Origin: a virus
Taxonomy: Duplodnaviria; Heunggongvirae; Uroviricota; Caudoviricetes
Strand: one strand, 5' to 3'
DNA length: 64,000 bases
Virus record (IMG/VR): IMGVR_UViG_2585427757_000006
Below are positions 3,664-58,982 of this stretch, piece after piece; position 1 is the first letter of the stretch, and each line of letters starts with the position of its first letter. The notes beneath the pieces are model-generated. The model saw nothing but the letters and a program-made list of their open reading frames with translations, ran no database searches and was not told the origin of the DNA. The position numbers were made by a program, and so were the translations under genes.

Positions 3664-3905
3664 TTTACCACCCCGTTCGGAAACAACTCATTCGCCGTAG
3701 TTGATATAACCTCCCAATTAACGCCGACATCAGCGTTATGGCATTGTCTGATTTTTTGCATCACCTGTACGCATTGTTCATCAGTGAGATCTGTCCTTAC
3801 TTCAGCAATATCTTCTTTGTGCCACATAACCATGAGTAAGGGTTCGTCTTCTGGATAGTTTTTCAGTTTCTCGATGATTTCTTTTGCTGTTCCAAACATC
3901 TTCAT
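3657..3905 (-). CDS. Hypothetical protein (82 aa)
   Basis: SD aggag directly upstream of the ATG at 3905. 7-nt overlap with the downstream ORF start (3663). Preceded by the operator-like palindrome. Confidence 0.55.
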   Translation of the reverse strand: MKMFGTAKEIIEKLKNYPEDEPLLMVMWHKEDIAEVRTDLTDEQCVQVMQKIRQCHNADVGVNWEVISTTANELFPNGVVKC

Positions 3906-3910
3906 CTCCT

Positions 3911-3979
3911 AAACAATTTGTTTTCTTATATGACTTATTATCTCAATCAACAAAAGGTAGAAAACAAATTGTTTTAGAG
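3911..3979. promoter_or_regulatory. Two copies of the AAACAA-N-TTGTTT palindrome (family A)
   Basis: aaacaatttgttttcttata 3911-3930 and gaaaacaaattgttttagag 3960-3979. The first ends 5 nt before the SD of gene 3657..3905. Confidence 0.5.
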
Positions 3980-4010
3980 TTTGTTAAAGTCAGAAGGGGT
4001 TGTGTCTATA

Positions 4011-4039
4011 TGAAAATGCCCGGCGTGTTGCCGGGCATT
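4011..4039 (-). terminator. metG intrinsic terminator
   Basis: Stem aatgcccggc / gccgggcatt (4015-4024 / 4030-4039) with loop gtgtt, followed on the minus strand by tttTc; 20 nt after the metG stop. Confidence 0.7.
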
Positions 4040-4058
4040 GCGAAGAGAGGGTGTTTAA

Positions 4059-6092
4059 TTACTTAACCTGGTGGCCAGGTTTAGCACCAGCATCCGGGCT
4101 TAACAGGAAGATATCTTTCCCCCCGGGGCCAGCAGCCATTACCATGCCTTCGGAGATACCAAAGCGCATTTTACGCGGTGCCAGGTTGGCCACCATAATG
4201 GTGTGACGCCCGATCAGTGCCTGCGGATCTGGGTAGGCAGAACGAATACCGGAGAAGACATTGCGTTTTTCACCACCGAGATCCAGCGTCAGGCGAAGCA
4301 GTTTGTCAGAACCTTCTACAAACTCTGCGTTTTCAATCAGCGCCACGCGCAGGTCAACTTTGGCGAAGTCGTCAAAGGTGATAGTTTCCTGAATCGGGTC
4401 GTCAGCCAGTGGGCCAGTTACCGGTGCGGCTGTGGCTTTCACTTCTTCTTTGGATGCTTCCACCAGTGCTTCAACCTGCTTCATATCGATGCGGTTATAC
4501 AGTGCCTTGAACGGATTCACTTTATGGCCCAGCAGCGGTTGCTGGATACCATCCCAGGTCAGTTCTGTATTCAGGAATGCTTCTGCACGTTCAGTCAGTT
4601 TCGGCAGTACCGGTTTCAGGTACGTCATCAGCACGCGGAACAGGTTAATGCCCATAGAGCAAATCGCCTGCAGATCGGCATCGCGTCCTTCCTGCTTTGC
4701 CACCACCCACGGAGCCTGTTCATCAACATAGCGGTTAGCCAGGTCAGCCAGTGCCATGATTTCACGGATAGCTTTGCCAAATTCGCGGCTTTCCCATGCT
4801 TCGCCAATCACTTCAGCGGCATCAGTAAAGGTTTTGTACAGTTGCGGGTCAGCCAGTTCGCTTGCCAGCACGCCGTCAAAACGCTTGTTGATAAAGCCTG
4901 CATTACGGGAGGCCAGGTTAACCACTTTGTTAACGATATCGGCATTCACACGCTGAACGAAATCTTCCAGGTTGAGATCGATATCATCAATGCGCGAAGA
5001 GAGTTTCGCAGTGTAGTAGTAACGCAGGCTGTCGGCGTCAAAATGATTCAGCCAGGTGCTGGCTTTAATAAAGGTGCCGCGAGACTTGGACATCTTCGCG
5101 CCGTTCACCGTCACATAGCCGTGAACAAACAGGTTGGTCGGCTTGCGGAAGTTGCTGCCTTCCAGCATGGCAGGCCAGAACAGGCTGTGGAAGTAAACGA
5201 TATCTTTGCCGATGAAGTGGTACAGCTCGGCGGTGGAGTCTTTCTTCCAGTATTCGTCGAAGCTGGTAGTGTCGCCGCGTTTGTCGCACAGATTCTTGAA
5301 GGAACCCATGTAGCCAATCGGCGCGTCCAGCCAGACGTAGAAGTATTTGCCCGGTGCGTTCGGAATTTCAAAACCGAAGTAAGGTGCGTCACGGGAGATA
5401 TCCCACTGTTGCAGGCCAGATTCAAACCACTCCTGCATTTTGTTTGCCACCTGCTCCTGCAACGCACCGCTGCGGGTCCATGCCTGCAACATTTCGCTGA
5501 AAGAAGGCAGATCAAAGAAGAAGTGTTCGGAATCACGCATTACCGGTGTAGCGCCAGAAACCACTGATTTCGGCTCGATCAGTTCCGTCGGGCTGTATGT
5601 CGCGCCGCAGACTTCACAGTTATCGCCGTATTGATCCGGCGCTTTACATTTCGGGCATGTGCCTTTTACAAAACGGTCCGGCAGGAACATGCCTTTTTCC
5701 GGGTCGTACAGCTGAGAGATGGTGCGGTTTTTAATAAAACCGTTCTCTTTCAGGCGAGTATAGATAAGCTCGGACAACTGACGGTTCTCTTCGCTGTGCG
5801 TCGAGTGATAGTTGTCATAGCTGATGTTAAAGCCTGCGAAATCAGTCTGATGTTCCTGACTCATTTCGCCAATCATCTGTTCCGGTGTGATACCAAGCTG
5901 CTGTGCTTTCAGCATGATTGGCGTACCGTGGGCATCGTCGGCACAGATGAAATTAACCTCGTGGCCGCGCATTCGCTGGTAACGAACCCAGACATCAGCC
6001 TGGATGTGCTCCAGCATATGGCCGAGGTGGATTGAGCCGTTAGCGTACGGCAGCGCGCACGTCACCAGAATTTTCTTCGCGACTTGGGTCAT
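4059..6092 (-). CDS. metG: Methionyl-tRNA synthetase (677 aa from [25 protein letters not shown])
   Basis: HIGH (HLGH) and KMSKS motifs, Zn knuckle CPKCK..CEVCG. Near-identical to E. coli MetG as recalled. The track ORF has a 43-codon upstream extension; ATG taken at 6092. Confidence 0.97.
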
Positions 6093-6249
6093 AGTAGGCA
6101 TTACTTCTTTGTAGTGAAAAGGGGCTTGATAGTAACAAAATGGCCTTATGTCTGCCATGTGATAACAGCATTTCTCATAAATGATTAAATGTCGTAGCTG
6201 GAGTACACTACAAGGCGACAATTGCGCAAATTAAAATAAAGGAGACGGG

Positions 6250-7486: not shown

Positions 7487-7597
7487 GAGCGCCAGCGGCG
7501 AACATATGAGCTTCGGAAATACTAGACATTCTTAACTCCGTTGTTTTCTAGTTGTGGTTATTTTCACAAATAAGAAAAGATAGAAAACAATTTATTT

Positions 7598-10480: not shown

Positions 10481-10582
10481 AATTACACCATTAAATAATT
10501 TGTTTTCTGATTGGTGTAATTATCGCAAACTTGAAAAGGCATAAAAGCTGCATTCATAGGCGTTACAGCAGATTTAAGGCGT

Positions 10583-11204: not shown

Positions 11205-11225
11205 TTAAACAAGTTGTTTTCTTAT
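11205..11225. promoter_or_regulatory. Representative family A palindrome
   Basis: ttaaacaagttgttttcttat, about 17 nt upstream of the ATG at 11188. Confidence 0.5.
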
Positions 11226-11911: not shown

Positions 11912-12004
11912 GTGTTTTCCTTTTGTTATTTGTCAAAACAAGTTGTTTTCTAGTTAAATAAATTGCTTACGCAAAGACGGTCAATGCATATGTACTAACA
12001 ACCG

Positions 12005-33268: not shown

Positions 33269-36994
<3,726 letters not shown>

Positions 36995-37008
36995 AATTGT
37001 AAATTCCC

Positions 37009-38172
37009 TTAATCAAAATTCTTCTGTTTCATTGCCTCAGCCGCTTTTTGCAGCGGTCCTTTCAAGGCTTTTTCTAACTTTGTCATCTGCTCTAAGTGCC
37101 ACGCAACCGCTTGGGGCCACGTCTCTTTATTAAACCCATCAGCTTTGGTCGAAAACTGAATACGGCAAGATTTCTTCTCATCCAGCCTCATCCACTCAAG
37201 TTCTGCACCAAAAGCATGTTCAATGTCCTGTTTGGACTGACTCAACAAGTCAAAAAGGTATTTATTCTCTTCGGTAACCCCACGGCTGATCCAAAGCTCT
37301 ACTCGAAGCTCTTTTTGCAGAAATATCAGGTTATACGGACACCCACTTAACCCTGAGCCTGCTGATAACCAGTGATCTTTGCTTGGGCTAATGTTGTTAT
37401 AGAGTTGGCAAACGCTTTTCTGAAACGCCTCTAAGGCACGCTCCCAGTACTCGCGACGCACCGTATGGCGGTTTTTAAGGACCACTTCGGTGGTTTTTTC
37501 TTCCGCTTCCTTGGCATTAATGCCGATCATCAACTCTTTCGCTTCTGGCGTTGGAATGATCTGGTCAATATTAATCAGTAGCTGTTCACCCAGTGAATAA
37601 GGCGTGATTTTGAAGCAGGCAATGCTAATGCCTTGACCCAATAACCACAGCGCGGTGCTGGTCACTTCTTTGCGAAAGTTTGCCGCAACTAGCATAATAC
37701 GCTGGCTGTTACCCAGGTTGAGCTTTAACTCATCCAGATCGGGCGCATCCAAAAATTCACATATTCTCGCCGAAGCACTTGCAGGGGCATTTAACAGGTC
37801 AACCTCTGCTGTTACAGGCTCATAGCGATCTAAGTACTGCTGGTAAATGTCAACTATTTGTGCTTTGGTTAAACTGGCACAGTAAGAGGCATATTTAAGG
37901 GCCTGCCACACCACATCTCGGCCACTGTCGTCCAGCTTATTTTCAATAATGACCAAGTTGCCATCTTTATCCAGTGCCAGTAAATCTAATCGTTCACGGG
38001 TGTCATCAAAGCCATCGAACTCTTTTTGAATAATCAACAACTCTTCACCCAATGCGGAAGGTTCGTGTGCCAACCACTCCTGAAGATGCTTGCGCTCAGT
38101 AAAGCCCAACTCACTGAACTTCTTTGTCCTAACAGGACTAATCCTGTTAGTTTGATGATTTACCGTGAACAT
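37009..38172 (-). CDS. PD-(D/E)xK-type nuclease-fold protein embedded in the R-M operon (387 aa)
   Basis: RLDLLALDKDGNLVIIENKLD fits a D...ExK motif. The C-terminal half resembles the DUF4268-type domain I recall from type I R-M loci (unverified). Confidence 0.55.
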   Translation of the reverse strand: MFTVNHQTNRISPVRTKKFSELGFTERKHLQEWLAHEPSALGEELLIIQKEFDGFDDTRERLDLLALDKDGNLVIIENKLDDSGRDVVWQALKYASYCASLTKAQIVDIYQQYLDRYEPVTAEVDLLNAPASASARICEFLDAPDLDELKLNLGNSQRIMLVAANFRKEVTSTALWLLGQGISIACFKITPYSLGEQLLINIDQIIPTPEAKELMIGINAKEAEEKTTEVVLKNRHTVRREYWERALEAFQKSVCQLYNNISPSKDHWLSAGSGLSGCPYNLIFLQKELRVELWISRGVTEENKYLFDLLSQSKQDIEHAFGAELEWMRLDEKKSCRIQFSTKADGFNKETWPQAVAWHLEQMTKLEKALKGPLQKAAEAMKQKNFD

Positions 38173-38181
38173 ATTCGCGTC

Positions 38182-39462
38182 CTATTGCTCAACCATTTCT
38201 GGGGTGATTTTTATTTTTCCTGTCACGGCGCTGTTGATCAGGGTGGTTTTGTATTCTTTAAGCTTTTCAATCTGCGACTTTTGGATATCAATCGTGCGAT
38301 TCAGATCTGGCTCAATTCCTTCAATGAACGAAATTATTTCTTGAATTTCATCTTTTGGTGGCACTGGAACCAATACACTTGCAAGACGATCCCTTGTTAA
38401 TTTTGGCTGTGCCGCACCAGAAATATATACCGTATAGTCCAATCCGCTTAATAATTCGGCCCAGTATTTAAAACCATGAAATTTTGGCTTAATAATATGT
38501 GCATGGTTATTCACCCAATACTTTCCAGTTGCAACAAAAGCCAATGGTGTTGACTTGCTTAGCAAATTCGCGCCATCTTCAGCGATCAAGATTAAATCTT
38601 CATCAAAGATGTAGTCATCAACATAATCGATAACACCACTTGCTCCGTAATACGGATATACGCCCTGTCTCGACTCTCTCTCAACTGCGCTTATTGGAAC
38701 TCTTCTACTGTTAAGAAACTCAAACGCATATCTCAATGACATTAAGTTCCAATGCGCTGGAATCTTACCAATCCAATCCACACCGGAGTCTTTCATTGGC
38801 ACATTGGGATCAAGCCCTTGGGTCACCGCCTGTTGGATGATGATCTGCTTACGCTCTTTCAGCAGGCTAATTTGCTGCTCTTTGATCGAAATCGCTTCGT
38901 CGATTAGAGCGGTTTTCTTGTCGAGAAAATTTGCAATTAGGGACTGCTCTTCTTCTGAAGGCAGAACAAAAGGAATCACCTTCATCCGTGCTTTTGAAAG
39001 GTCCCACTGACCAATCCTTACACCATCTGATGCACTACCAAAAAACGATACATATAACTTACTGCGTATCGCCCAATTGAAAAACTCAGGATTTATTGCC
39101 TTTGTAAAATCAAAAATAAAATACGCAGGACTTACAATTCCAGTGAACTTTGATACACCGTAAGAACCCTGCCACGCTTTCATTTTATTCATTCCAAATT
39201 GACCTTTCTCAAGCTTTTTATAGCCGCTAAGATCATCTGGTATAAAATTGTGATTTGACTCTTGATTATCCACGTCTCTCTCGATAACACCTTGTTCGCG
39301 TGTTATCGAAAGTAGTGGCAATTCAGGGCAGTTTTTGACCGACACCGGAGATAGGCACGAGCCTAACTTAACCAAGTCCCAATGCTCTGGAATCTCGCCA
39401 ATCCACTCATAACCAGAGTCACTATATTGATCATACTTTAGCGTTGAGGTAATGCTTTCCAT
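38182..39462 (-). CDS. hsdS: Type I restriction enzyme S subunit (426 aa)
   Basis: Two-fold internal repeat (WEWIGEIPEHWDLVKLG / VDWIGKIPAHWNLMSLR) with conserved central and C-terminal coiled regions. Confidence 0.85.
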   Translation of the reverse strand: MESITSTLKYDQYSDSGYEWIGEIPEHWDLVKLGSCLSPVSVKNCPELPLLSITREQGVIERDVDNQESNHNFIPDDLSGYKKLEKGQFGMNKMKAWQGSYGVSKFTGIVSPAYFIFDFTKAINPEFFNWAIRSKLYVSFFGSASDGVRIGQWDLSKARMKVIPFVLPSEEEQSLIANFLDKKTALIDEAISIKEQQISLLKERKQIIIQQAVTQGLDPNVPMKDSGVDWIGKIPAHWNLMSLRYAFEFLNSRRVPISAVERESRQGVYPYYGASGVIDYVDDYIFDEDLILIAEDGANLLSKSTPLAFVATGKYWVNNHAHIIKPKFHGFKYWAELLSGLDYTVYISGAAQPKLTRDRLASVLVPVPPKDEIQEIISFIEGIEPDLNRTIDIQKSQIEKLKEYKTTLINSAVTGKIKITPEMVEQ

Positions 39463-41891
39463 TAGGCTTCTCCCTGAACTTCCGCCACTTTCACGCCTAA
39501 TATTTGTGCAATCAAACCATCAGCCTTCTGCTCTAGATTGATAATGTCAGTTGCTACTTCTTCAAGACTACGTAATGGCTTATGCAGATAGAAATACTTA
39601 TTGAAGCTGATTTCATAGCCAATTTTTACCGTATCTAGGTTTATCCATGCTTCATCGACATGAGGCTTCACTTCATCTAGGAAGTACTGGTAAATGCTTT
39701 GCTTTAATGGAACAGATTCTGTATCTCGCAGGTCTGAATTGGTCTCGTAAGTGATATACTCGCCTTTTTTACCGCCTTCTGCTGAAGGAACGGGGTAATA
39801 ACCAAAATCTGGCAAGTCAGCGACTTCACACTCATAGCGCTCCAGCAGGTCGTTTAATTTATCACCCGTTAATTTAACTACCTTTTTAACCACTTTCTTG
39901 GCGGTTTCGTCATACCAGCTCACCGCGTGAAGAATGGCATTTTTCTCAGGTGCTGAAAGCTTAATAGCATGGGCTTTTAGCGATTTATCAACTTGGGTTT
40001 TAAAGCTATTGAAGTCATCAAATTCAATGCTACCGATGTCAGCCATCAGCGTTTGTGCAGTTTCAAGCAATGCTTTTAGCGCCAGCCAGTGTTTCACATC
40101 AAGCAGTTTGGCCTTAGCCTTAGCATTGAGACTGATGTCGTTATCTTCACACCAAGAAAGAATGTCTTTCTCGATGGATTTTAAGAAGCTCTTTTTCTGA
40201 TCTGACCCGTAGCCAGTTTTTTCGTAAACACGTTCGCCGTGCTCTGCGTACACGTACTCCATCACTTCACTAAGTTGCTTATCAAAACGCAGTGGGGCTA
40301 TGGCATCTTGAGTAAACTTGGCTTTGCGGCGATCTGGGCGCTCGATAGTGACTTTGTAGTAGCCAAAATCGTCATTGCTGAATACCTTACTGGCGATGCC
40401 AACAGGATCATTGTTTGCATCCAGTGCTCTTTCAACATCCTTACACGCGAGGTAAGTATCGGTAATTTCCGTGATGTGCTCAGGCGCAAATTCGCAGTTT
40501 TTGTTACCTAAGTTCTTGCGCAACTTACGGTAGAGCAAGCTGGCATCAATTAATTGCACCTTACCTTTACGCGCCTCAGGTTTATTGTTGCTCAACACCC
40601 AAATGTAAGTGGTAATGCCAGTGTTATAGAACAGGTTATTAGGTAACTGAACGATGGCATCTAGCATGTCGTTTTCAATGATGAAGCGACGAATATTACT
40701 TTCACCACCGCCCGCATCTCCGGTAAAGAGCGATGAGCCGTTATGAACAGAGGCAATCCGGCTGCCTAATGGACTTACGCTCGGATCTTTCATCTTGTTG
40801 ACCATCTCCATTAAGAAAAGCAGCTGGCCATCACTCGAACGTGGCGTGGCATCCACCACTTCGAGATTTCCCCAATAGTCTTTCAGGCTAACCTTAAAAC
40901 GCGGGTCAATCACATCACTGCCGTCTTTAATGTACTTCTGTTCAGACGCCCAACTCTTACCGTATGGCGGGGTAGACAACATAAAGTCAAAGCGTGAAGC
41001 CGCAAACTCGTCGGTAGACAAGGTTGAGCCTACCTTGATGTTCTCAGGGTTGTTACCTTTGATCATCATGTCCGATTTACAAATCGCGTAGGTCTCGTCA
41101 TTGATCTCTTTGCCGTAAAGGTAAATATCTCGGCTGTCGTTCGGGTATTTCTCTTCAATGAAGTTTTGAGATTCAGTGAGCATACCACCGCTACCACACG
41201 CAGGGTCGTAAACGGTCATGGTCAATGGTAGCTGCTCTTTCACTGGGTCAAAAACCAAGTGTGTCATCAGCTCAATCACTTCCCTAGGTGTAAAGTGCTC
41301 ACCGGCTTCTTCGTTATTCTCCTCGTTGAACTTACGGATCAACTCTTCGAACACGTACCCCATACCCAGGTTAGTAAGGGCTGGCATCTTGTTGCCATCT
41401 GGGTCTTCGATCGTTTCATGAGTTAAGTTGATGTAAGGGGAAACAAACTTTTCGACGACATCAAGAAGGACTTGCTTTGAGGCCATGTGACGAATTTGCG
41501 ACTTGAGGTTAAAGCATTCAATGATTTCTTTAACATTATCGCTAAAGCTAAGCAGGTACTCTTCAAAGTTGGCGAGTAATATCTGTTGGTTATTCGTTGC
41601 GGTGTTGAACAGGGATTTCAGGGTCCATTTAGATGTATTGTAAAAAACATAACCACTAGCCGCCTTCAATGGTTCATCATCAAGCTCCGTGGCTTGCATC
41701 TCTTCTTTTTGGAACTTGACCTCTTCAAGCACGGCTTCTTTGGTGGGTTCAAGTAACGTATCTAAACGTCGTAATACCACCATAGGTAAAATCACATCGC
41801 GGTACTTACCGCGAACGTACACATCACGTAAACAGTCGTCGGCAATGTTCCATATAAATGAGATGAGCTTGTTATGTACACTATGATCCAT
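39462..41891 (-). CDS. hsdM: Type I restriction enzyme M subunit (809 aa from MDHSVHNKL)
   Basis: DPACGSGGML (motif I), a motif IV variant STPPYG (canonical NPPF/NPPY), and a long C-terminal extension. ATG at 41891 has SD aggaaa; the track start at 41927 is TTG. Confidence 0.9.
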   Translation of the reverse strand: MDHSVHNKLISFIWNIADDCLRDVYVRGKYRDVILPMVVLRRLDTLLEPTKEAVLEEVKFQKEEMQATELDDEPLKAASGYVFYNTSKWTLKSLFNTATNNQQILLANFEEYLLSFSDNVKEIIECFNLKSQIRHMASKQVLLDVVEKFVSPYINLTHETIEDPDGNKMPALTNLGMGYVFEELIRKFNEENNEEAGEHFTPREVIELMTHLVFDPVKEQLPLTMTVYDPACGSGGMLTESQNFIEEKYPNDSRDIYLYGKEINDETYAICKSDMMIKGNNPENIKVGSTLSTDEFAASRFDFMLSTPPYGKSWASEQKYIKDGSDVIDPRFKVSLKDYWGNLEVVDATPRSSDGQLLFLMEMVNKMKDPSVSPLGSRIASVHNGSSLFTGDAGGGESNIRRFIIENDMLDAIVQLPNNLFYNTGITTYIWVLSNNKPEARKGKVQLIDASLLYRKLRKNLGNKNCEFAPEHITEITDTYLACKDVERALDANNDPVGIASKVFSNDDFGYYKVTIERPDRRKAKFTQDAIAPLRFDKQLSEVMEYVYAEHGERVYEKTGYGSDQKKSFLKSIEKDILSWCEDNDISLNAKAKAKLLDVKHWLALKALLETAQTLMADIGSIEFDDFNSFKTQVDKSLKAHAIKLSAPEKNAILHAVSWYDETAKKVVKKVVKLTGDKLNDLLERYECEVADLPDFGYYPVPSAEGGKKGEYITYETNSDLRDTESVPLKQSIYQYFLDEVKPHVDEAWINLDTVKIGYEISFNKYFYLHKPLRSLEEVATDIINLEQKADGLIAQILGVKVAEVQGEA

Positions 41892-42052
41892 TTTCTTTTC
41901 CTGTTCAGTGTTGGTTGCACCCCACAAAGTTGCTGCAACGGCTTCACTATAAATTTAAAATTCTGTTCTTTCTGTAACGCCTAAATGGCCTCTACATCGT
42001 TCGATTAACTTGTTCTACCCGGCGCTAGATTTAAGTTTATGACACCATAAAG

Positions 42053-46102: not shown

Positions 46103-46558
46103 TCAACGGGGAGTAATAAAGCGTTCAGAGCCTAATCGCTCTAATTCAACGATGGCCATCTTTGACGCCTGAACGATCATGTCTCGGCGATGCGAAAAGG
46201 CGGCGACAGCATGTTTGTATATGTCTGCGATGTGCCGTGCTTCATCCAACTTCTGCCTTTTAGACAGATACTGTGGGTTTGTTTTAACCTTAGCGTCCAG
46301 TACAGATTCGTTGAACTTAATGCCGTTCATACTCAAGTTCTTACGCTCTGTGTCGTATAGCTTTGCTTCAACAGCTTCAAGGTTAAGTTTTGCCTCTGCG
46401 ACACTTCTTTCTGCATGAGCGAGTTTTGAGCCATACTCCATTAAAAGGCGGGGTTGTCTACGCCAGACTTCCTCCAGATTGTCTCGGTCAAACTCGAGAT
46501 CAGACATTATTTTCTCGTAAATATCGGCGATCATGCACATTTCCTTATCACTTATCAT
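46103..46558 (-). CDS. Hypothetical coiled-coil protein (151 aa)
   Basis: Long ORF with heptad-like composition. Confidence 0.55.
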   Translation of the reverse strand: MISDKEMCMIADIYEKIMSDLEFDRDNLEEVWRRQPRLLMEYGSKLAHAERSVAEAKLNLEAVEAKLYDTERKNLSMNGIKFNESVLDAKVKTNPQYLSKRQKLDEARHIADIYKHAVAAFSHRRDMIVQASKMAIVELERLGSERFITPR

Positions 46559-46624
46559 TTTGTATTGATTATATCATTGTAATGATGAGGCAATGAGCTT
46601 GAAGATAGGGGGGGTGAGGGGATA

Positions 46625-46653
46625 AGGGAAAACATGGCCTTTATGGCCATGTT
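46625..46653 (-). terminator. Intrinsic terminator after the polymerase C-fragment
   Basis: aacatggcc tttat ggccatgtt (46631-46653), followed on the minus strand by ttttccc. Confidence 0.65.
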
Positions 46654-46660
46654 TATTGGA

Positions 46661-47830
46661 TCACGTCTTAATAGTTTCTGCTACGTCGGCTAATATCGCT
46701 TCTAGTCGTTCTCCCTCTTCAGGTCTGAAGTAAAGAATGTTGGGGTTAAACCCGTAAAAGACAGTAACGTCAAGGTCTGGAAGATACTCCTTCCTGCCGA
46801 CCAAATCGGATGGCTTGTTTTTGTTGTTAAACAATGAAGTTGCCCGGCTGCCACACGTCAGCACATAGGTCGGACGCACCAGATTGATCTCTTCACGCAT
46901 AAAGTCGGTGAACTGGCCGATCTCGTCTTTGGTGTAGTCTTTTTCTTTGTCTTTAACCTTCTTGCAAACACCTGTGACATAGAGATCGCCCATGCGTAAA
47001 TCTCCAGCCGTCAATAGCTTGGCCTTAAAGTCGTCGTATCCGTTCTCCATAAAGTAACCGGTTCGAGCATCATTGCCGTTCGCATTGTCCAGAATGATCA
47101 TGATTTTCGGCTTAATACCAATGCTGGGGCGGATTAGTTCATCACCTAAGCCCATTTCAGCCGCCATCCGCGTCATGAGTACGTTAATTTCAGCCGAACG
47201 TTTGGGGTTCATCTCAAACGGACGTGAGGCTTTAACTGCGTCTATGACAAGGTTTCCCATCAATTCAGCCTGGTCGCGTAGGCGCTCTGGATCAGTTGCT
47301 GGCAGACTGCCTGGCTCGATGGATGCAAACGCCCCTACTTTTTGCAGCGATTCGCGCACTCGACTATTACAGGCACGTTTCTCGACAGCTTCTTCGAATT
47401 GCGCCAGTGACTCGAATTTGCCGCCAACTTTTTCTCGCGCTCTCATGATGGCTTGGCAGCCATTCTCAGAACACCCCTTCACAGCAGAGAAGGGCGCATA
47501 CAGCACCTGGCTGCCATCTTCAAGCGTGCGGATCTCGATTCGGTTAGATGACACGTTAACGTCTGGTGGCAATACGCGAATGCCATAGGTCAGCGCATCT
47601 TTAACCAGCCCCTGGTGTTTATCTTCGCCAAGAATAGTGAGAGCAGCAGCGAAAAACTCTGCGGGATAATGAGTTTTCAACCACATAGATTGATAACTGA
47701 TTAAGGAGTAAGCAACAGAGTGTGATTTGTTGAAGGCATACGCGCCGGATTTCTCAAACATATTCCAGATTTCTTCGGCTCGTTCGTGCGTCAGGCCATT
47801 GCTCTCTTCGACAACACCGGTAATTTTCAT
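46661..47830 (-). CDS. dnaE: DNA polymerase III alpha (DnaE-type) C-terminal fragment fused to a UDG-like domain (389 aa)
   Basis: YAFNKSHSVAYSLISYQSMWLKTHYPAEF is the conserved DnaE finger motif. The last ~170 aa (IMIILDNANGNDARTG...LTCGSRA...FYGFNPN) resemble a family-4 uracil-DNA-glycosylase fold. Confidence 0.8.
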   Translation of the reverse strand: MKITGVVEESNGLTHERAEEIWNMFEKSGAYAFNKSHSVAYSLISYQSMWLKTHYPAEFFAAALTILGEDKHQGLVKDALTYGIRVLPPDVNVSSNRIEIRTLEDGSQVLYAPFSAVKGCSENGCQAIMRAREKVGGKFESLAQFEEAVEKRACNSRVRESLQKVGAFASIEPGSLPATDPERLRDQAELMGNLVIDAVKASRPFEMNPKRSAEINVLMTRMAAEMGLGDELIRPSIGIKPKIMIILDNANGNDARTGYFMENGYDDFKAKLLTAGDLRMGDLYVTGVCKKVKDKEKDYTKDEIGQFTDFMREEINLVRPTYVLTCGSRATSLFNNKNKPSDLVGRKEYLPDLDVTVFYGFNPNILYFRPEEGERLEAILADVAETIKT

Positions 47831-48561
47831 GCAGTCACCTCATCAATCTTCACGAACTCATCCCCATTGGAGGCCAGCCAGTTCCGTTGGCGCTCCCAGC
47901 TCCATATCTCTTCACGCATTTCACTATGCAGGCGAATGTGGGCGTCTTCTGGAAGTGCTACAAGATTCCCAGGGGCGTTATCTATCGTATCGCGGTTAAT
48001 ATGGTGGACATGTTCATCGTCACGTAGCTCCCGACCGAGACGTTCTTTCGCTATCAATCGATGAACGTATTCGTATTGCGAAACGCCATTGTTACCAACC
48101 AGCTGCATCATGTAGCCGTTGGTTTTTACGATGATGCCACCTTTGTAGTTGTTCGCTTCTTCTCCGATCTTTCCGCGTTTGGCAGCCGCCAGCTTTTCCT
48201 TCGTCTCCGCGCGGATTGTTCTGCCGGTTAGCTTTTTCGAAACGGTGGCCACTCGCTCATCGATATCAGCACGCAGACCGGCATTCCACGAGGTTTTCCC
48301 ATACATAGGGTTGCCAGTGCCAGTCCGGGCTTCGGAGAGACGCTTCATACGTTCGTCATTATTTTTGTTTTTGCCACGATTCCAGGCTGGGGTAGCGGAG
48401 ATCCGCGCGCTTCCGCGCCTGATCCCCCATTTGGCTAATAAGCGGTCAATATTTGCCTTGCTGCAACCAGCTTCGGCGGCAATGTCTTCTTTTCTCATCA
48501 GGTCAACCATGTAACGCTGACGTAACCATTCTTCTGTGATTTTGTACTTCGTACTCGGCAT
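47827..48561 (-). CDS. Free-standing HNH homing endonuclease (244 aa)
   Basis: C-terminal HNH EYVHRLI...HVHHINRDTIDNAPGNLVAL..H, with NUMOD-like repeats (PAWNRGK, KTSWNAGL). ATGA overlap with the downstream polymerase fragment. Confidence 0.85.
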   Translation of the reverse strand: MPSTKYKITEEWLRQRYMVDLMRKEDIAAEAGCSKANIDRLLAKWGIRRGSARISATPAWNRGKNKNNDERMKRLSEARTGTGNPMYGKTSWNAGLRADIDERVATVSKKLTGRTIRAETKEKLAAAKRGKIGEEANNYKGGIIVKTNGYMMQLVGNNGVSQYEYVHRLIAKERLGRELRDDEHVHHINRDTIDNAPGNLVALPEDAHIRLHSEMREEIWSWERQRNWLASNGDEFVKIDEVTA

Positions 48562-48609
48562 TTCTAAGACTCACTAAACAAATTGTTTTCTTATCTTATA
48601 AATTAATTC

Positions 48610-50973
48610 TCAAATATCGAAGCTCGTTATGTCGGCATTTATTGCCATTGCTTCGGCATAAGTGCGACGCTCACCATCAGCACAAAGTAGGCGTGCTGCT
48701 TTATGGATTTTTCTCGTAGAACCATCATCCAGTGACACTGTCACCCAGCCTTCCTCCGCTCGCTTAATGAAGTCGCCGCCAATGGATTTCATTTTCTCCA
48801 TATCTTTTTTCCCGATCGCTTTCCTGACCGAGTCTGCTTCCGCCATTGAGAACCCCGCCAAGATTCGCGTAGCAGCCATGATCTGTTCCTGATAAATCAG
48901 AACTCCGTTTGTGTCGCGAGAGATGTCGTCCAGCATTGGGTGTAAGGAATGTGGGGCCATGAAGCCTTTGGCCACGGACACATAATCGTCCAACATGCCG
49001 GATTGAATCGGGCCAGGTCGGAAGAGCGCAGTTGTAGCGACGACCGTTTTAAAGCTCATTGGCTCAATTCCACCACCTAAATCTTTAAGCAGCTTGCGCA
49101 TTGGGCCTGATTCAAGCTGGAATACGCCCTGTGTATACCCTGCAGCAAAACCATCCAGCACCTTGCGATCTTCAAGAGAAATGGCATCAAGATTGATATC
49201 TTCACCTGTGTTCTCTTTTATGTAGCGTTTTGCACTATCGAGCAAATCGAGAGTTGCCAGGCCAAGCACGTCCAGCTTAATTAGGCCCATAGCCTCGCAG
49301 TAACGCTTGTCAAATGCGATACAACGCGCGTCACCACGGCGTTCAACCGGTGTACGTTCTGTCAGAGGAACACCTGCTACGATCATCCCTGCCGCATGTC
49401 TACCAAAGCCACGCATAAGGCTTTGTAACTTGCAGGCTGCATTGAATGCATCAGGATATTTTGTTGCGTATTTGTCGAGACTTGCCAGTTGTTCGCGCAG
49501 CTCTTCCAATGGAAGGCTATCATCCTCGACGTTCTTCAGTTCTTTTGATACCGCCATATCTGCGGACTCCACACCATAAATACGAGCGGTGTCACGTAGT
49601 GCAGAGGCTGCGCCCAGGTAGGTGAAGTTCGGAATGCCTGCAACGTAATCTTCGCCGTAGCGTTCATTCAGATACTCGATCACCTCATGGCGACGTGCCT
49701 GGCTGAAGTCCAAGTCCGCATCCGGCAAGTCGAGACGCTCAGGGTTGATGAAACGCTCAAACAGAAGACCGTGACGGATTGGGTCGACGTTGGTTATGCC
49801 TATGCACCACGCCACCAGAGAACCGGCAGAGGAACCACGACCAGGCCCAACGGGAATGCCAGTTTCACGACTATGATTCATCAGATCGCGCACCATCAGG
49901 AAGTAACCACAGAATCCCAGGCGAGTCAGCGTGTCCATTTCGTACTTTAGCCGCTCAACATAAACCCTGTTCTCAGAAGCAGGTGGTGTGTATCCAAACT
50001 CTTTTGTGGTAAGACGTTTACGCAGCCCTGCAACAGCCAGTTTCATCAGCGTTGCAGGTTCGTCGTCTGCCATCTTGGGCAGTGCTGGTGGCAATTCATG
50101 CCAGCGCCATGTGCAGGCATCGATAATGGAGTCCTGCGTTGTTGAGGCCATTGCAGCTGTTACCGGCACATCCATGCGAACGGAGAAGGCTTTAAGCGCC
50201 TCAAGGAGATGGCGACGACCATTGATGGCGTTATCTCGCTGGTGGGGGATACGCAGACGATGCGGCTGGTCGATTTTTATGTTGTTCGTAACCATGTGCG
50301 CAATGTCTTTAATGTCTGCATCGTCGATCGATTCGTAATAAGCGGGATAGAACGCCACTGGCTCTATTTTCAATGCGCTGGCGACTTTCATCGCCCGGAC
50401 GTTAATCTGGTCGTAGAATGGGGTAGGGTGCGGATAAACCACACTATAGAAGTTGTCTTTTCCACCCGCTGTAATCAGTGTGCTTATGATTTTTGCAAAA
50501 TCGTTGCGTTGGAACACGCTACCGATGTCGGAAGTAAGCAGGATGATGTTGCCTTTGGCATATGTAGAAACCAACTGTTCGAGCGAGAGACGCGGCACAA
50601 AGTAGAACTGTTCTCGTGTGTTGGCCACCGTCATTAGTTCGCAGATGTCGCGATATCCTTGCTCATTTTTAATTAGAGCGGTAAACGAGTAGTTACGTCC
50701 CCGCTCTAATGATTCCATACATCTCATAGATTCTTTAGCAAGTTTAGCCCGGTGCTCGTATGTGGGATCATCAACAATGTTTAGTTTCACACCACAAATA
50801 ACCGCCATGTCGTCACCAGCGGCACGTTGTAGTGGAATAACGCTCGCAATATTCATGCTATCTGCTGAAATTACAGCGGTGTAGCCAGCTTCTCTGGCAA
50901 TCTTCACCGCGTTTTCAGCTTTTAGAGCCGACTCCCCAAGTGAGAAGTCAGTTCGAACCATCAGTGCCTTCAT
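48610..50973 (-). CDS. dnaE: DNA polymerase III alpha (DnaE-type) N-terminal fragment: PHP, palm, thumb (787 aa)
   Basis: GPGRGSSAGSLVAW, DLPDADLDF (catalytic Asp pair) and LFRPGP. Ends 45 aa after ..FIKRAEEG with non-DnaE-like sequence. Confidence 0.9.
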   Translation of the reverse strand: MKALMVRTDFSLGESALKAENAVKIAREAGYTAVISADSMNIASVIPLQRAAGDDMAVICGVKLNIVDDPTYEHRAKLAKESMRCMESLERGRNYSFTALIKNEQGYRDICELMTVANTREQFYFVPRLSLEQLVSTYAKGNIILLTSDIGSVFQRNDFAKIISTLITAGGKDNFYSVVYPHPTPFYDQINVRAMKVASALKIEPVAFYPAYYESIDDADIKDIAHMVTNNIKIDQPHRLRIPHQRDNAINGRRHLLEALKAFSVRMDVPVTAAMASTTQDSIIDACTWRWHELPPALPKMADDEPATLMKLAVAGLRKRLTTKEFGYTPPASENRVYVERLKYEMDTLTRLGFCGYFLMVRDLMNHSRETGIPVGPGRGSSAGSLVAWCIGITNVDPIRHGLLFERFINPERLDLPDADLDFSQARRHEVIEYLNERYGEDYVAGIPNFTYLGAASALRDTARIYGVESADMAVSKELKNVEDDSLPLEELREQLASLDKYATKYPDAFNAACKLQSLMRGFGRHAAGMIVAGVPLTERTPVERRGDARCIAFDKRYCEAMGLIKLDVLGLATLDLLDSAKRYIKENTGEDINLDAISLEDRKVLDGFAAGYTQGVFQLESGPMRKLLKDLGGGIEPMSFKTVVATTALFRPGPIQSGMLDDYVSVAKGFMAPHSLHPMLDDISRDTNGVLIYQEQIMAATRILAGFSMAEADSVRKAIGKKDMEKMKSIGGDFIKRAEEGWVTVSLDDGSTRKIHKAARLLCADGERRTYAEAMAINADITSFDI

Positions 50974-51151
50974 GTGTTTTTACCTTTCTGGTTTTTTTGA
51001 TTTTGTCATTGGGGAAGCCTACGAACTTCCCATGCATCGAAATCGCAACTTCTTTTGCTGATTGGTGACAATCGGGCTTGTCTGGACACACCAGACAAGC
51101 CTTACCAGTTTCAGAAGCAGCGATAAGAGAGCCGAAACATCCTTTACGCAC
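50948..51151 (-). CDS. Small Cys-rich protein (67 aa)
   Basis: C..x15..CLVC..x5..C pattern. Overlaps the dnaE N-fragment start by 26 nt. Weak call. Confidence 0.35.
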   Translation of the reverse strand: MRKGCFGSLIAASETGKACLVCPDKPDCHQSAKEVAISMHGKFVGFPNDKIKKTRKVKTHEGTDGSN

Positions 51152-51153
51152 GA

Positions 51154-52389
51154 TTAACCAAATATTTTTTGAACAACTTCACGAGCCGCTTGTGCAGAAG
51201 CTGAAGGGAGTTTGTTAATGAAAGAACGCTCAATACCTGTCACAAAGTCGCCTCGCATCATTCCAATCTTGGCCGACAACAAAAGTTCACGAGGGCCAAT
51301 TGGCTGACTAATAAGGTGTTCTTCGTATCCATCGCGAACGATACCGGCAAACTTAACCATCTTTTCAGCGTATTCATCCACGATGCCTGCATTTGTCAAC
51401 ATGTTGATCTCTGCGTCTTTGCTCATGTATTTCACATTCGAAACGATGCCAAAACGCGAAAAGTTCGCGGCGTTCTGGATGTTTGTACCCTGGTACAAGC
51501 CGGTTTCATCACCAGATCCGTTCGTGTTGCCAGTGCCAATGAAAGCAAACCGTTCATGCGGAGTAATGCGACGCCATTCTGGAGTTGCCTCTTTGATGAC
51601 CAACGCTTCACCTTCCAGCACTGGCTGATACACGCCAAGAATTTGTGGAAACGCAAAGTCGTATTCATCCGCGAGGTAAACCCAGCCATGCTTCATTGCG
51701 AGCGCAAGCAAGCCAGGTTCGAAATACGTAGAGCCATCACGCGCCAGAATTTGCCCCGTAACATGTGCCTCTTCCATTGATGCTGTATGTTGGGCACGGA
51801 TCAACGGACGATTGAGCAAAGCACATAGCTGTGTAGGCAATGACGATTTGCCTGTTCCTGCATGACCCCACAAATAGCCAGGTATGCCAAGTTCAAGCAT
51901 CATGAAAATATCTTTGATCAGTTCGAAGTCGCCATATACGTAGCCTTTCTTCACTTCGGGAACGAACTCTGGATACGGCGTATTGACGTTGACGCTAACC
52001 ATGAGCGGCGTCCCACGTTTTGTTCCGAGTTCTTCCACCGTTACGTTTAGCAGTTCGTGAGCTGCGACCAGATCTGTCTTGTACTCAACTGTGCCTGTGT
52101 AGCCAGGGCTACTGGTCAAGCCAGAAGATTTGGCCATTTCGCTTTTTTGCTCGGCACGTTTAGCTTGAATTGCATCAAGTGCCTTTTTCGATAGCGTTGG
52201 TTCATCTGGAAACTGCGTTGTGTACATTTTCAGTACGGTGTCAGGATCGGCATCTTTTACTGACTCAGGAATGCCCTCGCAATTACCATTGGCTACATGG
52301 GACTTAAAATAGTGAAATGATTTGCCGCACCACTTGCAAACAAGGTAATCAGAAGGATTTTTTTCATTTTGCAGTGCAGTAGTCGTCAT
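51154..52389 (-). CDS. CobS/MoxR-like AAA+ ATPase (411 aa)
   Basis: Walker A GHAGTGKSSL, Walker B VYLADEYD, and an N-terminal CKWCGK..H..C zinc-finger-like motif. Confidence 0.8.
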   Translation of the reverse strand: MTTTALQNEKNPSDYLVCKWCGKSFHYFKSHVANGNCEGIPESVKDADPDTVLKMYTTQFPDEPTLSKKALDAIQAKRAEQKSEMAKSSGLTSSPGYTGTVEYKTDLVAAHELLNVTVEELGTKRGTPLMVSVNVNTPYPEFVPEVKKGYVYGDFELIKDIFMMLELGIPGYLWGHAGTGKSSLPTQLCALLNRPLIRAQHTASMEEAHVTGQILARDGSTYFEPGLLALAMKHGWVYLADEYDFAFPQILGVYQPVLEGEALVIKEATPEWRRITPHERFAFIGTGNTNGSGDETGLYQGTNIQNAANFSRFGIVSNVKYMSKDAEINMLTNAGIVDEYAEKMVKFAGIVRDGYEEHLISQPIGPRELLLSAKIGMMRGDFVTGIERSFINKLPSASAQAAREVVQKIFG

Positions 52390-54593: not shown

Positions 54594-54691
54594 GGCTAAT
54601 CCTTTGTTATGAAAACAAATTATTTACTAGTGTGTTTAATGTAGCACTGCGCGAACAGGGAACTAAGCCATTCGCGCAGGGAGAAGAGGGG

Positions 54692-58073: not shown

Positions 58074-58982
58074 ATGATTGGTAAGTTGTCTGATTCTTTG
58101 ATTGAAAATAAATACAACGAATTTAGAGAAGAAATATCTTTACTTTTTGACTATTTAAATCAGATAAATGATACAACAAAGAAAAATATAAAACGTCTTC
58201 TTAAAGAAGTGGAGTATGCACAAAATCCAGATACTATTATTAATATTAATGAAACTATTAAGATTAAGTGTGGCACAACGTTAGCTCGCCATTTATGTTC
58301 AAACCCATATACAGGTTCAACATTAGAGATAGGTAACAGCGCCATTGATTTAGAAGAAAAGATAAGATTGTGTAATACTTTGAAAAATAAACAATATCAG
58401 TGGGTTATTACTGAAGCCTATGAGTTACTGGAAGACTATATTGAGGCAATATATGTCTATACTGTATGTGTTCGAAATGATTTATGGTCCTCAAGTGATT
58501 TTGGTAAGGTTGAAGATGATGAAATTGGGAAAAGGGAAGTTTATTACAGATTATTAAAAGCAAAAAGTAACCCATCGAAAAAAATAACTAAAATTTTCAG
58601 AAATAAAATACCTGGCTTCAAAGAGATAGAAACAAACAACAAGATTGGCAAAAACTATCGCTTTAACATCAAGCTAATTGAACTACTAAGACATACAATA
58701 GTACACAATAGTGGACGATTCAATGATACAGAAAAATTTATAAATAAGGTTTTAGATGAATCTGAAATAAACGGTAAGAAAAGAGTTATTGGAGAAAGAG
58801 CTGTTAGAAGTTACATTACTAAAGTGCAAGAAGATGATATTGTGATGCTCTTAGAAAGACCATCTGAAATTTTAGGTTCTTTTGGTGGGTATTTTAACAG
58901 AGCAAAATTTTTACTAAGTGATATTTTAGAATACTCACTAATCATTAAAGAAGAACTAAAATCATATCTAGGCAATCATTAA
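58074..58982 (+). CDS. Low-GC hypothetical protein with a HEPN-type Rx4H motif (302 aa)
   Basis: SD agagg at 58064-58068. LIELLRHTIVHNSGRF gives R-HTIV-H. Composition (by eye below ~30% GC) is much lower than the neighbours. Confidence 0.6.
   Translation: MIGKLSDSLIENKYNEFREEISLLFDYLNQINDTTKKNIKRLLKEVEYAQNPDTIININETIKIKCGTTLARHLCSNPYTGSTLEIGNSAIDLEEKIRLCNTLKNKQYQWVITEAYELLEDYIEAIYVYTVCVRNDLWSSSDFGKVEDDEIGKREVYYRLLKAKSNPSKKITKIFRNKIPGFKEIETNNKIGKNYRFNIKLIELLRHTIVHNSGRFNDTEKFINKVLDESEINGKKRVIGERAVRSYITKVQEDDIVMLLERPSEILGSFGGYFNRAKFLLSDILEYSLIIKEELKSYLGNH

Follow-up and report, generated by a model that had tools for sequence, protein, structure and literature searches.

Introduction

The locus described here is a DnaE-type polymerase gene that occurs as two cistrons, DnaE-N and DnaE-C, with an HNH endonuclease gene between them. 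It lies in a 64,000-nucleotide (nt) stretch of DNA from a virus of the Caudoviricetes (IMG/VR record IMGVR_UViG_2585427757_000006), the whole of which is called the window below. Among the closest described systems are the Aeromonas phages 25 and 44RR, in which a PolB-type polymerase is split into gp43A and gp43B, fragments that co-purify and polymerise (Petrov, Ratnayaka & Karam 2010; PMC2988022). The gene 43 split holds a seg endonuclease in phage 25 and an endonuclease-free intercistronic sequence in 44RR (Edgell and colleagues, PMC2988022). A phage replicative polymerase is in both cases encoded by two collinear cistrons, and the same doubt exists as to whether the endonuclease made the split or invaded it. 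The Aeromonas enzyme belongs to the B family and its tenant is a GIY-YIG seg endonuclease, whereas the present one is a C-family DnaE with two unrelated HNH endonucleases and an open reading frame (ORF) of 184 amino acids (aa) as tenants. Moreover, here intact and split alleles coexist in a temperate phage-plasmid family, and the split is fixed in deep clades.

In Aeh1, NrdA is split into NrdA-a and NrdA-b by the HNH endonuclease mobE, and the tails at the junction are essential for an active enzyme (Friedrich 2007; Crona et al. 2011, PMC3045599). There, as here, a free-standing HNH gene sits within an essential gene of DNA metabolism, with no splicing and with short new C- and N-terminal tails. 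The enzyme is a different one, the tails of the present system measure 2-7 and 2 residues, and its break falls in a lineage-specific mini-domain instead of the conserved core.

So-called fractured DnaE genes combine split inteins with a free-standing endonuclease, and hairpins are found upstream of their endonuclease genes (Dassa et al. 2009, PMC2677866). The present locus shares with them, and with the cyanobacterial split DnaE intein, the dnaE host gene and a break 31 residues from the cyanobacterial site; the fractured genes also resemble it in the endonuclease between the halves and in an upstream hairpin or palindrome, kept after endonuclease loss. They differ in that the intein halves there ligate the exteins, whereas flanking intein halves were not found here, and since no intein sequence is present, the DnaE halves must stay separate polypeptides. 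Another association of this kind is that of I-HmuI and I-HmuII of SPO1 and SP82, which are HNH endonucleases located inside self-splicing group I introns of phage DNA polymerase genes. These are likewise HNH endonucleases with NUMOD-type modules tied to a phage DNA polymerase gene, but the present locus has no ribozyme and the domain order is reversed, with the DNA-binding modules N-terminal and the HNH nuclease C-terminal.

On comparative grounds, the locus can be assigned to the known class of intein-free genes in pieces that are accompanied by a homing endonuclease (the NrdA-a/b and gp43A/B type): the gene is contiguous in close relatives, the two fragments are collinear with it and adjacent on one strand, neither intron nor intein was found at the junction, and both fragments are under selection. 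The explanation that accounts best for the observations, and in which considerable confidence is placed, is that the halves of a C-family DnaE are translated separately and assemble, with a co-converting HNH cassette at an older split site. DnaE-N and DnaE-C would come together non-covalently into an active enzyme, and neither RNA splicing, protein splicing nor ribosomal bypass would be involved. A two-polypeptide polymerase had been proposed in a preliminary description of this DNA, and comparative evidence (intact ORFs, ratios of non-synonymous to synonymous substitution rates (dN/dS), cassette mosaicism and deep split lineages) strongly favours it.

Organization of the locus and position of the break

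Identity of the region is 95-96% with Escherichia phages CMS-2020a and PhiR41_1, 91% with Cyrano and 85% with Salmonella phage SSU5, and reaches 99.9% with E. coli plasmids such as pGMI17-003_2; because of these phage and plasmid identities, the window is regarded as an SSU5-like phage-plasmid of E. coli. All elements of the locus are carried by the minus strand, and positions are those of the window:

48610-50973, minus strand: DnaE-N cistron, ORF of 787 aa ending in ...INADI-TSFDI, with PHP and palm/thumb (DNA_pol3_alpha) domains, the first half of the fingers and most of a family-specific beta domain of ~50 aa
48562-48609, minus strand: intercistronic spacer of 48 nt, with stops TGA, TAG and TGA in the DnaE-N frame
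47827-48561, minus strand: HNH/NUMOD3 gene, free-standing ORF of 244 aa
46661-47830, minus strand: DnaE-C cistron, ORF of 389 aa starting with MK-ITGVVEES, with the second half of the fingers (AFNKSHS), a helix-hairpin-helix (HhH) region and a C-terminal domain resembling uracil-DNA glycosylase (UDG)
47734-48990, minus strand: mobile cassette or co-conversion tract of ~1.26 kb, delimited by sliding identity

The ORF list and Pfam agree with the preliminary description, which had recognized the three ORFs (787 aa, a 244-aa HNH/NUMOD protein and a C-fragment); the 48-nt gap with its palindrome, the overlap of the HNH stop with the DnaE-C start as ATGA, and an N-fragment ending 45 residues past ...AEEG were likewise read in the sequence. 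DnaE-C has its own Shine-Dalgarno sequence, GAGGTG at 47841-47836, 5 nt ahead of the ATG. Since the three in-frame stops separate DnaE-N from the HNH ATG and DnaE-C lies in a frame other than that of the HNH gene, the production of one polypeptide from the region is impossible. Pfam assigned PHP, DNA_pol3_alpha (E 6e-74) and DNA_pol3_finger to DnaE-N, and HHH_6 with a weak UDG match to DnaE-C. The domain set of a C-family alpha subunit (PHP, palm/thumb, fingers, HhH) is thus present, with E-values from 6e-74 to 5e-17.

The alignment with uninterrupted orthologues that had been proposed as a check allowed the break to be placed. An intact single DnaE of 1168-1172 aa is encoded in PhiR41_1, SSU5 and Cyrano; DnaE-N was collinear with residues 1 to ~782 of the intact protein and DnaE-C with its C-terminal third, and the only residues without a counterpart in intact alleles were TSFDI at the DnaE-N tail (5 residues) and MK at the DnaE-C head (2 residues). 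The 45 terminal residues of DnaE-N, earlier described as unlike DnaE, proved to be largely native, as 40 of them align with a ~50-residue insertion found in every intact SSU5-type DnaE and lacking in the alpha subunits of E. coli, Thermus and M. tuberculosis.

Both fragments aligned to the alpha structures of E. coli, Taq and M. tuberculosis. DnaE-N matched residues 84-740 of the alpha subunit of E. coli DNA polymerase III (Pol III) and 363-793 of Taq alpha, and DnaE-C matched E. coli alpha 732-896, so that the break falls within the fingers, near residue 733 of E. coli alpha. The AFNKSHS motif begins at residue 32 of DnaE-C. The insertion site of the cyanobacterial DnaE intein, the bond between Y and A preceding FNKSH, corresponds here to Y31 and A32 of DnaE-C, and the earlier figure of ~35 residues between the break and this site was roughly right, 31 being counted.

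The C-terminal OB-fold and tau-binding domain of cellular DnaE were not matched, the E. coli alpha alignment stopping at residue 896. The C-terminal ~150 aa of DnaE-C (window 46661-47110) are UDG-like, of family-4 type, and replace the OB/tau-binding region of cellular alpha. A UDG-like C-terminus is also present on intact alleles, as PF03167 was found on the relative P0116.

Absence of splicing elements

It could be supposed that the halves are joined after all, through a group I intron, an intein, the split-intein trans-splicing of a fractured gene, or ribosomal bypassing. Three DnaE loci in which a split intein is accompanied by a free-standing endonuclease offer a precedent (Dassa et al. 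2009, PMC2677866), in six lineages the final sense codon of DnaE-N turns up again close to where DnaE-C starts, and the insertion bears a superficially intein-like '...LEDG...IH...' pattern. Nevertheless, an Rfam cmscan at E<=10 over 46400-51200 returned no group I or group II intron and only chance microRNA and small nucleolar RNA families, and the non-coding sequence at the junction amounts to 48 nt only, in keeping with the earlier remark that a group I intron would have no room. No Hint or intein family matched the fragments (Pfam, E<=0.01) or the family-specific insertion of the intact allele (E<=5), and neither a Cys, Ser or Thr residue at +1 nor an HN junction was found at the break. 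The junction has gained just 5 + 2 residues, a number much too small for intein halves, which are thereby ruled out, and the lack of an intein signature noted in the preliminary description was borne out. As for bypassing, the 783-nt gap holds a translated ORF and far exceeds known cases, every DnaE-C keeps its ATG and Shine-Dalgarno sequence, and the offsets of the matching codons are inconsistent. Joining of the halves by any of these routes is considered extremely improbable, and separate translation remains the preferred reading.

Two candidates raised during the analysis were dropped. An intein relic in the 50-aa insertion, suggested by the '...LEDG...IH...' pattern, was discarded because Pfam at E<=5 gave nothing relevant, and bypassing was rejected for the window on the gap, offset and start-signal grounds just given. 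The recurring codon was also considered in its own right: in each of the six split lineages, a codon read by the same tRNA as the last sense codon of DnaE-N lies between -2 and +8 codons from the DnaE-C ATG, at 48613-48615 and 47822-47824 in the window and likewise at loci L014, L016, L017, L019 and L020, listed below. The product of the chance probabilities is 0.002, for a post hoc test in which the offsets vary, and the recurrence may either go back to microhomology left by the original insertion or be coincidental.

Evidence for a probable two-piece polymerase

DnaE-N of 787 aa and DnaE-C of 389 aa were kept in 9 of 9 sampled alleles with the window-type cassette, and the HNH gene was kept at 244 aa in all eight that bear it, the ninth being a Buttiauxella plasmid in which it was lost. 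Both fragments were intact in these nine alleles and in five distant split lineages, and the decay by frameshifts in relatives that the preliminary description had named as contrary evidence was not seen. The dN/dS was 0.03-0.06 for DnaE-N and 0.015-0.03 for DnaE-C. Because part of the backbone divergence predates the cassette transfers, and only the codons inside the cassette have diverged solely while split, the 159 DnaE codons of the cassette were analysed on their own, giving 0.02-0.09; for example, the window and Cronobacter differ in these codons by 34 synonymous and 4 non-synonymous changes. Since both fragments are under strong purifying selection, cassette included, a non-covalent two-subunit polymerase is very likely.

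For the structural setting of the break, the intact homologue P0112 was modelled with AlphaFold2 (mean predicted local distance difference test score 76; 80-92 over residues 741-800). In this model, the insertion folds into a small domain of beta strands (745-750, 755-759, 763-766 and 769-772, then 784-785 and 788-793), with a helix at 773-778 preceding the last two strands, and by alignment the break maps to the turn that joins these two. The final strand of DnaE-N (..TSFDI) and the opening strand of DnaE-C (KITGVV..) would pair as the arms of a hairpin and help to hold the halves together, to which the large helical interface of the fingers domain would also contribute. An assembly role for the short junction tails is plausible by analogy with Aeh1 NrdA, whose tails are essential (PMC3045599).

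Several points weigh against a working split enzyme. Assembly of the fragments and polymerase activity are deduced from comparison, and the predicted hairpin contact comes from a monomer model of an intact homologue and not from a complex. Much of the backbone dN/dS signal is older than the cassette transfers, only the 159-codon patch being strictly post-split. The HNH gene was present in none of the isolated plaque-forming relatives of the phage collection (SSU5, Cyrano, PhiR41_1 and CMS-2020a), and a phage-plasmid can persist by means of its Rep3/IncFIB replicon and the host replisome, for which reason presence on plasmids alone is no proof of polymerase use. Three unannotated 'Klebsiella phage' records carry a split allele with a different, NUMOD4-HNH, insert.

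A rival reading is that the split polymerase is dead or dying, the endonuclease insertion having inactivated dnaE and the element living on host Pol III as a plasmid, perhaps as a phage too. The element does have its own plasmid initiator (Rep3), no isolated phage of the collection has the exact allele, and the NCBI Prokaryotic Genome Annotation Pipeline (PGAP) calls the C-fragment a pseudogene in some records. However, the PGAP flag 'missing N-terminus' reflects an annotation rule and not a frameshift, both ORFs are full length in all sampled split alleles, dN/dS is 0.015-0.06 over the fragments and remains low in the post-split patch, the split is fixed in deep clades at 54-79% identity, and it outlasts loss of the endonuclease in Buttiauxella. 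The selection signals and the deep fixation of the split thus argue against decay of the polymerase, which is considered very unlikely. The names given by PGAP to DnaE-C vary among 'pseudogene' ('missing N-terminus'), 'helix-hairpin-helix domain-containing protein', 'uracil-DNA glycosylase' and 'DNA polymerase III subunit alpha' (e.g. NZ_CP031136.1 95127-96245).

The HNH gene and its mobile cassette

The product of the HNH gene matched HNH_3 with 31.8 bits (cut-off 24.8) and NUMOD3 with 27.6 bits (cut-off 20.4) in Pfam, and it matched PHROG 21964 over its full length. It consists of an N-terminal region resembling a helix-turn-helix (HTH), followed by NUMOD3 repeats and a C-terminal HNH_3 nuclease, in which the motif ...EHVHHINRD...GNL...AHIRLH is unbroken. 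The gene has its own start and stop and is neither fused to dnaE nor placed within an intron, and it is lacking in near-identical intact alleles, PhiR41_1 and CMS-2020a being 96-100% identical outside the tract. A word-index search for close homologues gave just 5 protein clusters (>=87% identity), belonging to E. coli and Cronobacter; a tblastn search against phages gave nothing better than <42% identity confined to the HNH domain, and no relative in the PDB was found at E<=1. Its dN/dS of ~0.2, at a dS of 0.15-0.37, together with the intact catalytic residues, is consistent with an active element. The domains, the independent ORF, the pattern of presence and absence and the co-conversion described next identify the product as a probable free-standing phage homing endonuclease, whose cleavage activity and target are inferred.

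In the cassette, the spacer and the HNH gene are flanked by coding sequence, ~380 nt from DnaE-N and ~95 nt from DnaE-C, and the right boundary of the tract is sharp, lying at the invariant FNKSHS codons. Sliding identity revealed opposite patterns on the two sides of its limits. The intact PhiR41_1 allele was 97-100% identical to the window outside 47734-48990 and 45-70% inside, whereas the split alleles of Cronobacter, Enterobacter and Buttiauxella were 70-90% identical outside and 86-100% inside. Similarly, dS was 0.15-0.37 in the HNH gene and 0.13-0.44 in the flanking patch, compared with 0.7-1.6 in the rest of dnaE. Such mosaicism, read from the alignments, is the classical footprint of homing with co-conversion. 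Diverged phage-plasmid backbones of E. coli, Enterobacter and Cronobacter have received copies of the cassette, presumably by repair of double-strand breaks made in endonuclease-free alleles, and its arrival changes an intact dnaE to a split one in a single step. The split allele was found in 25 PLSDB plasmids and in 23 of the 107 E. coli phage-plasmids in complete RefSeq genomes. In Buttiauxella p1WJP83, the same cassette flanks and split are present with the HNH gene reduced to ATG TCA TGA, both DnaE fragments being intact and a Shine-Dalgarno sequence standing ahead of DnaE-C.

Age and spread of the split

A protein search with DnaE-N retrieved N-fragments of 784-792 aa at 87, 79, 78, 74, 70, 68, 62, 59 and 54% identity. 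They came from Klebsiella, Enterobacter, Xenorhabdus and metagenomes, with intact forms of 1168-1210 aa interleaved among them, and some of the split clusters are large, with 1105 (P0093), 383 (P0104) and 111 (P0106) member sequences. For the context of the Xenorhabdus N-fragment P0111, a look-up retrieved no record. The sequence between the cistrons, followed in every case by DnaE-C, varied among lineages as follows:

P0093 (L014, Klebsiella): an unrelated NUMOD4-HNH_3-HTH endonuclease of 233 aa
P0104 (L016): a 70-nt spacer only
P0106 (L017): an 84-nt spacer only
P0099 (L020): a 72-nt spacer only
P0124 (L019): an ORF of 184 aa with no family match

DnaE-C measured 385-389 aa in all five of these distant lineages, and the junction was uniform across lineages, with ...D(A/S)(A/L)D(I/V) and a tail of 2-7 residues, then MK(I/V).... 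In a neighbour-joining tree of residues 1-650, whole deep clades were split, and sporadic split alleles also occurred inside intact clades. Judged from these comparisons, the split junction is older than the window's HNH gene. The two-cistron polymerase is an old, stably inherited state, because deep clades are split with varied inserts or none, and the HNH gene is better viewed as the present occupant of a long-standing site between the cistrons, since the junction is common to endonuclease-free alleles and alleles with other inserts.

The preliminary description had attributed the split to this HNH gene, and one part of that claim holds: in the window's lineage the split came together with the HNH gene on the co-converted cassette, entering an E. 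coli backbone of intact type, a situation matched by gene 43 of Aeromonas phages 25 and 44RR (PMC2988022). The other part does not, as the junction is much older and occurs in alleles with no endonuclease or with other inserts. A de novo split of an intact dnaE of this lineage by the window's HNH gene itself, with the endonuclease-free split alleles as later deletions, would fit the majority of intact alleles in the E. coli clade, and also the Buttiauxella allele, which keeps the HNH start (ATG TCA TGA) and the cassette flanks and is therefore a deletion derivative of the same cassette. It fits poorly with the same junction being found at 54-87% identity with a NUMOD4-HNH gene, a 184-aa ORF or nothing, with HNH homologues limited to >=87% identity and an HNH dS far below that of the backbone, and with the window backbone having received the split ready-made on the co-converted tract. 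A de novo origin is regarded as unlikely, and occupation of an older site by the HNH gene is the favoured reading.

Intact alleles show three junction lengths (around P0008 residues 775-795), namely a short Cyrano type (DY-VEIV-SEQ), a medium SSU5 type and a long Xenorhabdus type. The flanks of the short type are 86-87% identical to those of the Klebsiella NUMOD4-HNH cassette, on account of which the short junction may be the empty site of that cassette or a re-fused derivative.

A fuller proposal, towards which we lean with moderate confidence, is that of a natural non-covalent DnaE heterodimer broken in the fingers, in which the last hairpin of the beta mini-domain would serve as an intermolecular clasp. 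The site would be a long-lived landing pad in which three or more unrelated inserts, including two HNH genes, have settled; split and intact alleles would interconvert, and the length variants of the intact junction could be scars of re-fusion.

Two further observations concern relatives of the locus. The 184-aa ORF of L019, at 3681-4235 in a lineage at 54% identity, has no Pfam match and a weak match to PHROG 8942, and may be an unrecognised mobile gene. Rare chimeric proteins that join DnaE-N to a RecA-like sequence also occur (P0079, P0097 and P0122). In P0079, the DnaE part runs to ...RRSYSEA, stopping short of the split site by a few residues, and continues into NGIISHN followed by TFLATAAM, an intein-like C-terminal junction, and P0122 has a weak Intein_splicing match. 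These features suggest inteins in the RecA-like gene of some elements, plus rearrangements or mis-assemblies.

Spacer palindrome and expression signals

At 48576-48588, 15 nt upstream of the HNH ATG, the spacer carries the palindrome AAACAATTTGTTT. It belongs to a palindrome family, (A)AAACAAnTTGTTT(T), often with TAAGA in front, of which 8 sites occur in the window compared with 0.28 expected:

3911-3923, 3962-3974, 7585-7597, 10493-10505, 11207-11219, 11936-11948, 48576-48588 and 54613-54625: palindrome sites

Most of these sites lie within ~50 nt upstream of an ATG, six of them within ~35 nt. Spacers that lack an endonuclease, in Buttiauxella (L004), L016 and L017, contain the palindrome too, and in L016 it is present twice, the copies making a perfect hairpin. 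A role as operator or promoter element in the phage-plasmid is probable, and the palindrome has the look of a control element shared across the family and now standing ahead of the HNH gene. A scan of the spacer for sigma-70 promoters and intrinsic terminators found none, counts being at or below shuffle expectation. In the predicted RNA fold of window 48540-48625 (minus strand), the 3′ end of DnaE-N pairs with the region of the HNH AUG (minimum free energy -15.8 kcal/mol, z -2.8, 0 of 200 shuffles as good). This predicted structure may give translational control of the endonuclease, and it recalls the regulatory hairpins upstream of free-standing endonuclease genes (Dassa et al., PMC2677866).

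Other genes of the element

The window also encodes a Rep3 initiator, a ribonucleotide reductase, an SbcC-like ATPase, a DNA ligase and a type I restriction-modification system, complete (hsdR/S/M) at 33977-41927, and a full-length methionyl-tRNA synthetase gene is present at 4059-6221. A Pfam scan of ten large ORFs (302-1005 aa) revealed no second DNA polymerase; it did not extend to further ORFs of 250-400 aa or to the part of the ~110-kb element that lies beyond the window. An ORF of 302 aa at 58074-58982, with no Pfam match and lying in a stretch of very low GC content (0.30), is probably recently acquired cargo.

Significance

A literature search of incomplete coverage, which took in SSU5 and vB_KpnS_p4727, returned no paper on this split. 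If the present reading is true, this would be, as far as found, the first intein-free, naturally two-piece DnaE-type polymerase. Annotation pipelines at present give the C-fragment wrong names (pseudogene, 'uracil-DNA glycosylase' or 'HhH protein'), and to protein engineers the locus points out a place where Pol III alpha tolerates being split. The split is found in clinically widespread phage-plasmids of the Enterobacteriaceae (E. coli, Klebsiella, Enterobacter and Cronobacter), where intact alleles, split alleles with the endonuclease and split alleles without it coexist on near-identical backbones as a natural experiment. This mixture of alleles would allow the study both of the tolerance of an essential enzyme to fragmentation and of the spread and loss of homing endonucleases.

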